A stretch of 64,000 nucleotides of DNA from Escherichia coli (GCF_044324785.1 NZ_CP172127.1), one strand, 5' to 3'. Shown: positions 20,005-29,871, counted from the stretch's first letter. Notes: generated by a model not told the origin, from the letters alone. Program-made: numbers and translations.

Positions 20005-20132
20005 GGTGTTGGTTCAGTTGGTTCAGTTGGTTCAATTTGTAAAGATCGTTGTTTTTATTGTGTTTTTTCTGAAATGTTGAACCAACATCAACTCATTTTG
20101 AACCAACACAGTCCAGCTCTGAACCAACAACA
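20005..20132. repeat. iteron cluster 1 (GTTGGTTCA x3 then TGAACCAAC x3), ori-like
   Basis: Three tandem GTTGGTTCA at 20008-20034 and three inverted copies at 20075-20132; near-identical in reverse complement to cluster at 29756-29871. Confidence 0.55.
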
Positions 20133-20230
20133 CAGCGATAGCTTTGTGATTGGTCCGTTATTTTCTGGTTGATATTTGAGCGTATAACAGTGTTATACAG
20201 TGGTATACTGTATGGATATTACTCACTGAT

Positions 20231-20674
20231 ATGGTCTTTGCAATGAGCAAATCTAATCTGGTCGCGTTCCGCATCCCATCTGAATTGCAGGATGAGTTTA
20301 ATCGGTCTGTTCTCGCTTCTGGAGGGGATAAAACCTCCTGGCTTGTTGATGCGATTCGCATGAAGCTGGGACAGCCGGAAAAGTCTATTGATTCACGAAT
20401 GCTTGGGCTGGTGGAGCGCATGGAAAAAGCCGCTGCGTCGCTTATTGCCGGAAAGCCGAACATCCCACCAAAGCTATATAACGAAACGGCAGTTATAAAG
20501 ATCATTGCCGATACCATCCGACAGGGATTTGATAATGGGCGTGTGATAGCGGAACGGCTCAATGAAGCAGGCTATCAAACAAAAGCTGGTAAAGCATGGG
20601 ATAAAGACATTTACAGCGCGTGGAAGCGTCAGGGAAGCAATGCTGAAAAGTTATCAGTGGCTCTAAGAATGTAG
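20231..20674 (+). CDS. putative DNA-binding regulator with N-terminal ribbon-helix-helix-like fold
   Basis: 147-aa ORF; N-terminus LVAFRIPSELQDEFNRSV...WLVDAIRMKL has the beta-strand/helix pattern of RHH repressors; preceded by overlapping palindromes at 20181-20205. Confidence 0.4.
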   Translation: MVFAMSKSNLVAFRIPSELQDEFNRSVLASGGDKTSWLVDAIRMKLGQPEKSIDSRMLGLVERMEKAAASLIAGKPNIPPKLYNETAVIKIIADTIRQGFDNGRVIAERLNEAGYQTKAGKAWDKDIYSAWKRQGSNAEKLSVALRM

Positions 20675-20690
20675 CCCTATATTTTGATTT

Positions 20691-21068
20691 TTAGACGTGC
20701 TTGGAGAACAGGTAGCGTGCCATCACTAAAACAATGCCAAAGACTTCAGCGAGGGTTCCCCCCATAAATAGGTTTATAACGAAATCACTAAAATGGAGCA
20801 GTTTTGCTCCAATAAGGACAAAAATCCCATTCATAACTAATAGCTGGCCTATCAGAATGCCGATAAACCACCGAGCAAACATTTTTTTCAGTTTTGTGTC
20901 TGTTTTTAAATCTTTTGTTTTTGCACGCTGATGGGCTTTGGCTGGATCCTCATCATTTAGATGTGTGAGGGTTTTTGCTGATGGAGATGAGCCAGAGGCT
21001 GGTTCACCTCTGGCTTGTCTTGCCGCTTGCTTTAGTTTTTCAGATATAGCGTAAGATCTAGACGTCAT
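20691..21068 (-). CDS. small membrane protein (basic N-terminal region, two predicted C-terminal TM helices)
   Basis: 125-aa ORF 4 nt downstream of ImmA-like gene; C-terminal hydrophobic stretches FIGILIGQLLVMNGIFVLIGA and GGTLAEVFGIVLVMA. Confidence 0.45.
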   Translation of the reverse strand: MTSRSYAISEKLKQAARQARGEPASGSSPSAKTLTHLNDEDPAKAHQRAKTKDLKTDTKLKKMFARWFIGILIGQLLVMNGIFVLIGAKLLHFSDFVINLFMGGTLAEVFGIVLVMARYLFSKHV

Positions 21069-21071
21069 TAC

Positions 21072-21560
21072 TCATCGAAGCCCTAAATTCTTTAGGCGAT
21101 AACGTATAGCATCATCGGATACACCAAAATAGGAAGCCATCATTACTGGTGCATATCCTGCATTGTTGAGGCGTCGAACCTCTTTTTCTGGCATGAGAAG
21201 ACATGCTGCAAAGTTATTGGCGAATATTTCTTCGCTGTCTACACCTTGGCTTGCCAGTTTTCCGCGGTAATCAACAAACTCATATTCAAGTGGCTGACCG
21301 TTCTCAGTTCGTTTGACGTAATGCCCTAACTCATGCGCACACGTAAATCGTTTGCGCACGTTACTATCATTACGATTGAGTATGATTACTGGATCTTGTT
21401 CTGGCTCTTTCAGCAATGCGCCTGAAACATCATCATCAAGCGTGGTTTCAACAACATCCAACCCTAACTCATTGGCAATCCATACTGGATCAACCGGGAA
21501 TTTCCTATCGCCCCAGATATCTTTCAAGAGGGCATGTGCAGATGTATTCGACATGTTCAC
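21072..21560 (-). CDS. ImmA/IrrE-family zinc metallopeptidase
   Basis: 162-aa ORF with HEXXH motif in context CAHELGHY typical of ImmA-like peptidases; no N-terminal HTH domain. Confidence 0.7.
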   Translation of the reverse strand: MNMSNTSAHALLKDIWGDRKFPVDPVWIANELGLDVVETTLDDDVSGALLKEPEQDPVIILNRNDSNVRKRFTCAHELGHYVKRTENGQPLEYEFVDYRGKLASQGVDSEEIFANNFAACLLMPEKEVRRLNNAGYAPVMMASYFGVSDDAIRYRLKNLGLR

Positions 21561-21641
21561 CTCCTTTGATTATGGTTAAATAGTCGAAATTTTCACCACT
21601 TCCCTTGTGGATATATTTACATATAAAAGGTGGATTTGCCC

Positions 21642-22547
21642 CTATATTTCCAGACACCTGTTATCACTTAACCCATTACTGGCCTGCTGCCGCAGATATT
21701 CCCGTGGCGAGCGATAACCCAGTGCACTATGCGGATGCCATTCGTTATAATGCTCGAACGCCTCTGCAAGGTTCTTTGCTGCCGTTAACCCGTCTGGTTT
21801 AGGCATGATACTGATGTAGTCACGCTTTATCGTTTTCACGAAGCTCTCTGCTATGCCGTTACTCTCCGGACTCCGCACCGCCGTGTTCTTCGGTTCAAGC
21901 CCCAACATCCGGGCAAACTGCCGTGTTTCATTAGCCCGGTAGCATGAACCATTATCCGTCAGCCACTCTACTGGAGACGCCGGAAGCTCGTTGCCGAAGC
22001 GGCGTTCCACCGCTCCCAGCATGACGTCCTGTACTGTTTCACTGTCGAAGCCGCCCGTAGTGACTGCCCAGTGCAGTGCCTCACGGTCACAGCAGTCCAG
22101 CGCGAACGTGACTCGCAGTTTTTCTCCGTTATCACAGCGGAACTCGAACCCGTCAGAGCACCATCGTTGATTGCTTTCTTTCACGGCCACTTTGCCAGTA
22201 TGTGCCCGTTTCGATGGCGGTACAGCGGTTTTTCGCTCAAGCAACAGCGCATTCTGGCGCATGATCCGGTAAACACGTTTGGCATTGATCGCAGGCATAC
22301 CATCAAGTTCGGCCTGTCTGCGAAGCAGCGCCCATACCCGACGATAACCATACGTGGGCAGCTCTCCGATAACATGGTGTATACGGAGAAGCACATCCGT
22401 ATCATCTGAGTGACGGCTGCGGCGACCATCTTTCCAGTCATCGGTTCGTCTGAGAATTACGTGCAACTGCGCACGCGACACCCGGAGACAACGGCTGACT
22501 AAGCTTACTCCCCATCCCCGGGCAATAAGGGCGCGTGCGCTATCCAC
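21642..22547 (-). CDS. insD: IS2 transposase OrfB (InsD)
   Basis: 301-aa translation [34 protein letters not shown]... with DDE integrase fold region. Confidence 0.9.
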
Positions 22548-22870
22548 TTTTTTGCACGCCCGTATTCAACGGCTTCTTTAAGGAGTTCATTTTCCATCGT
22601 TTTTTTGCCGAGCAGGCGCTGGAGTTCTTTAATCTGCTTCATGGCAGCAGCAAGTTCAGAGGCAGGAACGACCTGCTCTCCTGCGGCCACAGCAGTAAGA
22701 CTTCCCTCCTGGTATTGCTTGCGCCAGAGAAATAACTGGCTGGCTGCCACACCGTGTTGCCGGGCAACAAGGGAGACCGTCATTCCCGGTTCAAAACTCT
22801 GCTGAACAATAGCGATCTTTTCCTGTGTAGTACGCCGTCTGCGTTTCTCCGGTCCTAAGACATCAATCAT
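22505..22870 (-). CDS. insC: IS2 transposase OrfA (InsC)
   Basis: 121-aa translation [41 protein letters not shown]; overlaps insD as expected for programmed frameshifting. Confidence 0.9.
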
Positions 22871-28676: not shown

Positions 28677-29131
28677 TCGCTGAATTCCTTATATTGTTGC
28701 CGAGTTAACTGATAAAGCGTTACGCCGACGGGTTTACCACATCTGATATAAGCATCATCAAGGTGACCAACACGGGTAGCGCCAAGCAAACGGATAATTG
28801 CCCGTCCGTATTTCGTGGTGTCAGGAACCATAGTGATGCTGTTAAGGAATGGTGAGTTTTCGAGAAGCCATTTGCAGAATAATCGATGTCCTTGCAGTGC
28901 ATATTCACCACGGAATCCGGGGGCGTACACCGCATGGCATTCAACAACGCTATGCCAGAAGTTACGCACTTCATGAACGCCAGCCAGCACCAATCCTTCG
29001 TAGATGCCGAGATATACCGCATCAGGCTTGATGTAGTACGTGTGCCCCGGCTCAACAATATTTTCGGTATTGCCTGGCTCGTTAAGAAAGGCCTGTAATC
29101 GCACAGGGTTATCAATAAATTTTAGTTCCAT
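28670..29131 (-). CDS. hypothetical phage protein, first large gene of the ejection-protein-like block
   Basis: 153-aa ORF translationally coupled to the gp7-like gene; occupies the position of P22 gene 14. Confidence 0.35.
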   Translation of the reverse strand: MELKFIDNPVRLQAFLNEPGNTENIVEPGHTYYIKPDAVYLGIYEGLVLAGVHEVRNFWHSVVECHAVYAPGFRGEYALQGHRLFCKWLLENSPFLNSITMVPDTTKYGRAIIRLLGATRVGHLDDAYIRCGKPVGVTLYQLTRQQYKEFSEC

Positions 29132-29147
29132 GCGATGCCATCCATTT

Positions 29148-29309
29148 TCACATACAGCCTGCCAGCGCCTTATCTATTAACCCTCGTGCAATTTCATGCA
29201 GAGTTGGCGCTACTCCAATTCCTGATTTTTTACGCTGCTCTTCCTGAATTTTCTTTATCGCTTCCATTTGCTTCTCACTTATCAATACCGGCTTTACTGA
29301 AATAGCCAT
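29148..29309 (-). CDS. small ribbon-helix-helix-like protein (53 aa)
   Basis: Unlisted short ORF MAISVKPVLISEKQMEAIKKIQEEQRKK...; GGGGG Shine-Dalgarno 6 nt upstream of ATG; 16 nt upstream of the 153-aa gene. Confidence 0.35.
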   Translation of the reverse strand: MAISVKPVLISEKQMEAIKKIQEEQRKKSGIGVAPTLHEIARGLIDKALAGCM

Positions 29310-29324
29310 AACGCCCCCTTAGAA

Positions 29325-29340
29325 CTGTATAAAACAACAG
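29325..29340. promoter_or_regulatory. LexA (SOS) box overlapping the putative promoter of the ejection-protein-like operon
   Basis: CTGTATAAAACAACAG = CTGT-N8-ACAG; a TATAAT -10 hexamer lies on the minus strand at 29343-29348 just upstream. Confidence 0.5.
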
Positions 29341-29401
29341 TTATTATAGTTTCACAAATCGCAATATTCATCATAGCAATTGCAAAATATGAAACAAATA
29401 G

Positions 29402-29435
29402 CACAAAAAAATGCCACCGCTCAGTAGCTGGTGGC
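29402..29435 (-). terminator. rho-independent terminator-like hairpin separating the primase operon from the ejection-like operon
   Basis: Stem GCCACC/GGTGGC with 11-nt loop; seven T on the minus strand immediately 3' of the stem. Confidence 0.45.
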
Positions 29436-29755
29436 ATCGTTCTGTGTGTCAGGTTTTGACAGGTTTTTTATGGACTCTAAAAACTATATTTATGGTGTCG
29501 CATTACTCTTCACGGCAGGCGCTTTTCAGTTCTGCCCTTGCTTCTGGCTCCATTGGTAATTTGATTCGCGATCAGCTATGCGGATGGTTTGCTGAACAGG
29601 CATAACAACTTCTCAGAGGCTGTTTTTTGAACTACGAAAATTTCGTAGTGCTCACTTTCAAAAACGTCACGCCCTTGTACACAGGATTTTACGAAAGTCT
29701 CGTAAAACACTCTCTGATGCCAGCCAGGTGTTGTGCGCATCAATTCAGTCACATT

Positions 29756-29871
29756 GTGTTGGTTCAAAATACCGTGTTGTTGGTTCAGTGTTGGTTCAAT
29801 AAAAAGAATAAAATCCTTATAAAACAATACACTTTACAAATTGAACCAACTGAACCAACTGAACCAACACC
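29756..29871. repeat. iteron cluster 2 (GTTGGTTCA x3 then TGAACCAAC x3), crr-like, just 3' of the primase gene
   Basis: 29841-29871 TTGAACCAACTGAACCAACTGAACCAACACC is the reverse complement of 20005-20037; same 9-mer as cluster 1. Confidence 0.55.

Follow-up and report, generated by a model that had tools for sequence, protein, structure and literature searches.

Two mirror-image iteron modules around a cargo slot: a candidate replication origin in an EcCIMP1-family island of Escherichia coli

The replication origin of phage-inducible chromosomal islands (PICIs) and Staphylococcus aureus pathogenicity islands (SaPIs) is said to have been treated by Ubeda et al. in 2007. As described since, such an origin consists of an A+T-rich region with at least two iterons on either side, the two sides pointing in opposite directions, and is found just 3′ of the gene for Rep or Pri-Rep (PMC6092414, PMC9371898). 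Its iterons are recognized by the C-terminal winged helix of the cognate Rep, a helicase that loads itself (PMC6092414, PMC9371898, PMC7581432), and iteron specificity varies from island to island (Fillol-Salom et al. 2018, PMC6092414; PMC9371898). In Escherichia coli, the P22-like phage Kapi1 brings about excision and transfer of the PICI EcCIMP1 (Pick et al. 2025, PMC11773190); that paper makes no mention of an origin or of iterons. Here we analyzed a 64,000-nt stretch of E. coli DNA (GCF_044324785.1, NZ_CP172127.1; hereafter the window, with positions counted from its first letter), which contains an island of ~20 kb between dinD and yicC. This element is most likely an integrated PICI of the EcCIMP1 family. 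Two clusters of a repeated 9-mer, referred to as module A (distal) and module B (proximal), probably represent iteron arrays for the island's own primase-helicase (Pri-Rep) and together form one mirror-symmetric, two-module origin.

Exact copies of the repeat, GTTGGTTCA, were found six times at 20008–20128 and six times at 29758–29868. In the first cluster, copies at 20008, 20017 and 20026 (plus strand) form a tandem set with a 9-nt period and are followed by copies at 20078, 20099 and 20120 (minus strand) with a 21-nt period; in the second, copies at 29758, 29779 and 29790 (plus strand) precede a tandem set at 29842, 29851 and 29860 (minus strand, again with a 9-nt period). The window harbors 13 exact copies in total compared to an expectation of 0.64 ± 0.66, and none of 100 shuffles gave 13, which corroborates the three tandem and three inverted copies per cluster reported by a first-pass annotation of this DNA. 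The longer, functional repeat measures 10–11 nt (TGTTGGTTCA / TGAACCAACA).

Both modules follow the same plan, leading from a tandem iteron set over a 43-nt A+T-rich spacer to an inverted, spaced set. Module A (20008–20128; ~19972–20180 including conserved flanks) comprises tandem iterons at 20008–20034 (plus strand), a spacer at 20035–20077 (77% A+T) and spaced inverted iterons at 20078–20128 (minus strand). Module B (29758–29868; ~29715–29893 including an inner CTGGCTGG motif) comprises spaced iterons at 29758–29798 (plus strand), a spacer at 29799–29841 (84% A+T) and tandem inverted iterons at 29842–29868 (minus strand). The island as a whole has an A+T content of 53%. A and B are mirror images of one another with the tandem sets outermost, and the second cluster is, as originally noted, close to the reverse complement of the first, with 93% complementarity over a 55-nt arm. 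Alignment of the two modules revealed their likeness to be limited to the repeats, an AAAAGGT leader and, next to the tandem set, the motif ATTTGTAAAG...TTGTTTT, while the spacer, the flanks and one inner spacing (21/21 in A vs. 21/11 in B) have diverged. Similarity confined to repeats and short motifs argues for selective conservation rather than a recent duplication. In variants of module A that are 72–80% identical overall, every 9-mer is intact and all substitutions fall between the 9-mers; judged by this integrity, the repeats appear to be under selection. Rfam detected no RNA family at or beside either module.

Compared with described PICI and SaPI origins, module B corresponds in both position and anatomy, and module A in anatomy only. 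In each, three plus three exact 9-mers flank the 43-nt spacer, and each may therewith constitute a complete PICI-type module composed of a tandem set, an A+T-rich unwinding spacer and an inverted spaced set. Module B ends 25 nt past the stop codon of the 919-aa pri-rep gene (29894–32653, minus strand), in agreement with its earlier placement immediately 3′ of a primase gene. What sets this island family apart is the presence of two mirror modules, separable by up to ~10 kb of cargo. Our literature search retrieved no description of mirror modules bracketing kilobases of cargo for any PICI. The locus would accordingly belong to a familiar class, the PICI iteron origins, in a functional-looking architecture that is undescribed as far as we found.

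Pri-Rep contains a Zn-ribbon (residues 35–70), a TOPRIM domain (222–319) and a DUF927 helicase domain (366–644), as assigned by Pfam, followed by a predicted C-terminal winged helix. The protein is 99.5% identical to the EcCIMP1 primase, matches the NCBIfam model Cch1 (the helicase of the staphylococcal cassette chromosome mec, SCCmec) and aligns with PDB entry 8tch, 'Pathogenicity island protein' (E 1.8e-11). An AlphaFold (AF2) model of its C-terminus reached a mean predicted local distance difference test score (pLDDT) of 73, rising to 83–92 over the last ~90 residues, and a Foldseek search with this model returned the C-terminal portion of 5dgk, the Cch helicase (E 7e-4), together with winged-helix DNA binders. 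By its DUF927 domain, the 8tch and Cch1 matches and the C-terminal model, Pri-Rep belongs to the SaPI Rep/Cch class.

The link between this protein and the 9-mers comes from its relatives, for which 64 loci were fetched (one genome per species; loci are given below by our L numbers). The region after the gene was readable in 45 of them, from many Enterobacterales, and their dominant repeat types were GTTGGTTCA, GTCGGTTCA, GAGACAACA, a GGGTTA type, ACTTATCCC and AAACCGACC. Repeat type tracks the last ~30 Rep residues without a single exception: an RKSPRI tail is paired with GTTGGTTCA, RKTPRI with GTCGGTTCA (the change being present in 12 of 12 copies), GRVRE with GAGACAACA, and the remaining tails with the remaining repeats. 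Within the last 260 aa, the only columns to fully separate GTTGGTTCA-type from GAGACAACA-type proteins are 892–897 and 911. Because iteron sequence tracks the RKSPRI patch (residues 892–897; codons at 29963–29980, minus strand) across the 45 loci, this patch in the predicted winged helix is the likely iteron reader. From the same covariation we infer binding of Rep to its iterons. At the level of sequence, the perfect covariation of iteron type with a six-residue patch thus supports the initial suggestion that the clusters are candidate arrays for the primase C-terminal domain.

The form of module B downstream of the gene is constant in the relatives: tandem repeats, ~51 nt, and inverted repeats spaced 11 and 21 nt. 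In a contiguous class, represented in Yersinia, Pantoea, Erwinia and Tatumella, a mirror-oriented second module follows 42–72 nt after B (L007, L019, L021, L027, L032, L036, L041 and others), the module pair spanning ~260–300 bp. One member, L007, is labelled Chryseobacterium, yet is 78% identical to enterobacterial islands, and its label was treated as doubtful. In a split class, comprising E. coli, Serratia, Cedecea, Leclercia and others, 1–10 kb of variable cargo lie between the modules. Here, the same module types are 1.1–8.8 kb apart in L012, L016, L017, L020, L025, L030, L050, L054 and L058, and every E. coli island examined likewise belongs to this class, with up to 9.6 kb between modules. 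The mirror arrangement with outward tandem sets was present in 15 of 15 split loci. One and the same module subtype is adjacent in Yersinia (L032) and Pantoea (L041) but separated by 4.8 and 6.3 kb in Serratia (L025 and L030, respectively), and therefore cargo sits between otherwise neighbouring modules. Contiguous and split forms alike retain the outer flank of the distal module, TTTTGCTTATATATA followed by the next gene, and a TTTTGCTTATnTATATA motif, situated between the PerC start and module A in the window, is also kept after the distal module in other genera. In a tree of the Rep C-terminus, built by quick neighbour-joining and hence no rigorous phylogeny, the contiguous state extends across the whole tree, including every other iteron type, and the split state is scattered inside the GTTGGTTCA group. 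This pattern fits the split being the derived state, possibly arisen more than once or spread by recombination.

To gauge how common the arrangement is within the species, we queried 5426 complete E. coli genomes with module A and obtained matches in 564, at a median of two places per genome. The primase end together with module B was recovered at almost its full length in 363 genomes, and PerC together with A in 300. Between the constant modules lie 1.8 kb in L001, 6.4 kb in L003, 8.3–8.4 kb in L002, L004 and EcCIMP1 (which has both modules, 8.4 kb apart) and ~9.6 kb in the window island (cargo slot, 20129–29757). The cargo across E. coli islands includes differing ejection-gene types, Abi, an ImmA pair, helix-turn-helix (HTH) genes and IS2. 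The 1.8-kb slot of L001 has two annotated small hypothetical genes, to which an integrated copy (L077) adds a truncated ejection-protein pseudogene remnant. These two copies come from one strain, Z1323CEC0013, in which the island is present both as a separate circle of 12,152 bp (L001, NZ_CP148430) and integrated at dinD/yicC (L077); the primase gene is intact in the circle and annotated with an internal stop in the chromosomal copy. The circle may be a form that excised spontaneously and replicates, or else an effect of assembly; it is consistent with an active replicon.

Gene order in the window island is integrase, AlpA-like regulator, antA/antB, an 'ash' region, small genes, the 919-aa primase-helicase, module B, cargo, module A and PerC. 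The EcCIMP1-like set of integrase, AlpA, antirepressor, Ash, TOPRIM-DUF927 primase, DUF2824/DNA-transfer genes and PerC is present, so that the two islands share their gene set, including DUF2824 and ejection-protein genes, as well as both origin modules. They differ in their integration site (tRNA-Thr/yagU for EcCIMP1 vs. dinD/yicC here), and the window island additionally carries IS2, the ImmA pair and a different gp16/gp20 type.

If A and B indeed act as a two-module origin, helper-phage induction and excision would come first, upon which the wing of the Rep winged helix (RKSPRI) would bind the 9-mers at A and B. The spacers would then melt, and replication would be started by the self-loading DUF927 helicase together with the primase fused to it. 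Each module might fire alone, or the distal might aid the proximal module by looping, as crr of phage P4 does with ori. In the lineage of the window, the accessory and helper-exploitation genes lie between the two modules; as a by-product, the cargo is bracketed by two conserved sequences and would adjoin an origin.

Two of the islands have exchanged their replicase. In L005 and L073, the gene is recombined after the primase domain and a DUF5906 helicase replaces DUF927; both islands possess a repeat of their own, GGTGGTACAG, in two inverted clusters ~1 kb apart (in L005 at 21989–22097 and 23099–23206, around two small genes). A two-site layout thus recurs with an unrelated replicase. The swap point falls within the primase gene, downstream of the part that encodes the shared N-terminal primase domain. 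Module B is gone from the swapped islands, with the L005 breakpoint coinciding with the inner edge of B.

Besides the provisional nature of the tree, several observations weigh against a two-module origin. Module A does not lie next to rep but ~9.8 kb away, adjoining PerC. In the swapped islands L005 and L073, it still adjoins PerC and has all six 9-mers intact despite there being no cognate Rep in cis, and a decayed remnant (L072) likewise retains module A with intact 9-mers and no cognate Rep in cis. Such orphan copies may do something other than replication or may persist through linkage; they reflect either recent events or a role that does not call for Rep in cis. Conceivably, they might serve in trans, two islands being present in many genomes, or control PerC and its divergent 147-aa neighbour. 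Furthermore, eight loci possessed module B alone within the 10-kb flank examined. The second module of some contiguous relatives has a spacer rich in G+C, which cannot serve there as an unwinding element; this suggests that second modules can act as auxiliary binding arrays instead of as further origins.

The first-pass annotation had likened the layout to the bipartite origin of P4, and part of this comparison holds. According to the annotated GenBank record NC_001609, crr of P4 is located directly 3′ of the alpha gene and is made up of two 120-bp direct-repeat modules, each with a tandem pair of octamers at a 9-nt period, a gap and inverted copies; ori, with the same octamer, is 4.7 kb from crr. 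P4 and the window island hence have in common two iteron sites that are kilobases apart (9.6 kb in the island) and share one repeat, a similar crr layout, a C4/CI-type RNA region, an AlpA/Vis homologue and a distant integrase. Homology of Pri-Rep to P4 alpha is restricted to residues 1–360, i.e. the N-terminal primase (34% identity, E 1e-43). In contrast, the helicase and origin-binding part of the island protein is of the DUF927, SaPIbov1-Rep or Cch-like type and not of the P4 alpha type. The P4 sites flank the alpha operon and differ from each other in organization, whereas both island sites are 3′ of the replicase, are mirror copies with PICI-origin anatomy and flank cargo. A tblastn search of the island with P4 proteins recovered only int, the alpha N-terminus, the cI-RNA region and orf88, and did not find sid, delta or psu. 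Judged by these comparisons, the island would operate like P4 in having two distant initiator sites, yet it is no P4-type system.

A more far-reaching version of the two-module origin, possible but doubtful in our estimation, is a true split origin, in which Rep bound at the mirror modules would pair them and loop out the cargo, or would fire from both, the arrangement doubling as a device for gene dosage and cargo exchange. After induction, the helper-exploitation and defence genes between the modules would then be amplified earliest and most strongly, and the conserved borders of the slot would allow cassettes to be exchanged between islands.

Alternatively, only B might be the origin, with A acting as a Rep-responsive control array (for titration, handcuffing or copy control) or as an operator for the divergent promoters of PerC and the 147-aa gene. 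Plasmids provide a precedent: iteron control arrays such as incC/incA of P1 are second arrays of initiator sites away from the origin proper, which could pair with the origin or titrate the initiator. This explanation, which we consider unlikely, draws on the situation of A within the 260-nt intergenic region that separates the start of PerC (19971) from that of the divergent 147-aa gene (20231), on the conservation in several genera of TTTTGCTTATATATA after the distal module and just upstream of the next gene, and on both the G+C-rich second-module spacers and the retention of A in islands devoid of a cognate Rep. However, plasmid control arrays flank rep and contain no unwinding spacer, whereas the distal array of the E. 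coli island has full origin anatomy, with an A+T-rich spacer and the same ATTTGTAAAG...TTGTTTT motif as B. Nor did a crude consensus scan detect a sigma-70-like promoter around either module, A included.

It is quite improbable that A is a functionless or relic duplicate, left by a second island or an old inverted duplication, carried along by linkage and homogenised with B through gene conversion. The existence of orphan A copies would be compatible with such an origin, and gene conversion would fit both the patchy polymorphisms that A and B share beside the tandem set (ATCG vs. TGTA/AGTA/GGTA) and the L025 modules, which both carry the same variant middle repeat. Yet all six 9-mers remained exact while flanks and spacer diverged to 72–80%, architecture and mirror orientation are conserved across genera, and no primase remnant adjoins A. 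The conserved outer flank of the distal module in contiguous and split forms is a further argument against a relic; on the ground of its conservation in contiguous relatives, A as the origin of a lost second island was rejected.

The first-pass annotation had raised, as an alternative, an invertible segment or a mobile element inserted on its own, of which the clusters would be the terminal inverted repeats. This idea can hardly be credited. Inverted repeats around foreign, variable DNA speak for it, but none of 594 E. coli genomes carrying the sequences matched a synthetic inversion junction across 80% or more of its length. Marker genes at both cargo ends never change orientation between loci, the segment has no conserved invertase or transposase (IS2 being a private insertion), relatives have the modules adjacent without an insert, and the content between constant modules varies from 1.8 to 9.6 kb in E. 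coli. The part of that alternative that does stand is that the DNA between the clusters was separately acquired and is variable.

Outside module A, the gene for the PerC-family regulator (19684–19971, minus strand) has its start codon 36 nt from the outer tandem set. On the other side, the first cargo gene encodes a 147-aa protein (20231–20674, plus strand) with no match in Pfam, PADLOC or NCBIfam and a weak match to a PHROG of unknown function. An imperfect repeat, TATAACAGTGTTATACAGTGGTATACTGTATGG (20185–20215), operator-like in appearance, is located between module A and the start of this gene. The 147-aa protein was considered as an alternative iteron binder and rejected, as modules persist without the gene (L003, L004) and the gene is found away from any module in contiguous-type loci. 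Next in the slot are genes for a 125-aa predicted membrane protein (20691–21068, minus strand) and a 162-aa ImmA/IrrE-type peptidase (21072–21560, minus strand; PADLOC CapP model, E 4.9e-25). This pair (20691–21560) belongs to the variable part of the cargo and may represent a small sensor/effector or defence module. IS2 (21629–22962) is a recent private insertion, missing from the otherwise 99% identical island L002 of strain N12.

The remainder of the cargo consists of a weakly SieA-like gene (23840–24454, plus strand), P22-like genes for gp16 (24473–26578), gp20 (26578–27999), gp7 (27999–28676) and gp14 (28670–29131), all on the minus strand, a 53-aa gene (29148–29309, minus strand) and a terminator-like hairpin (29413–29428, minus strand). 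The homologues of genes 14, 7, 20 and 16, encoding head-completion and ejection proteins, form a contiguous block (24473–29131) which, together with the weakly SieA-like gene, follows the gene order of P22. The related EcCIMP1 has a P22-like phage as its helper; the satellite carries ejection-protein genes of its own. Between the 53-aa gene and module B extend ~450 nt of conserved non-coding DNA (29310–29757), retained in a replicase-swapped island too (L005, 21560–21900), for which a packaging site is one possibility.

The island backbone (32637–39742, minus strand) encompasses small genes, the 'ash' region with C4 and IsrK RNAs, the antA/antB antirepressor, an AlpA-like HTH protein and the integrase (38405–39742, minus strand), whose gene adjoins yicC. 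Rfam placed the C4 antisense RNA (35072–35159, minus strand) and IsrK RNA (35222–35299, minus strand) within an open reading frame annotated as 'ash family protein' (34613–35680). Just upstream of antA/antB, this region resembles the P1 immI-like c4/icd/ant switch; the P4 cI-RNA region matches there too, and the 'ash' reading frame may be a mis-call over non-coding RNAs. Outside the island, Rfam identified a JUMPstart RNA element in the chromosomal flank (50436–50474, plus strand).

The island family is present in about one tenth of complete E. coli genomes and in many other Enterobacterales. EcCIMP1 was shown to be a working satellite of a P22-like phage only in 2025, and a candidate origin and six predicted reader residues have now been located for its family. 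The covariation table offers ready specificity swaps for experiments and for the engineering of orthogonal replicons. The placement of accessory genes inside an origin raises the question of its effect on gene dosage and exchange, and an origin split by up to 10 kb would provide a testable case for the cooperation of distant initiator sites, a question open since ori and crr of P4.

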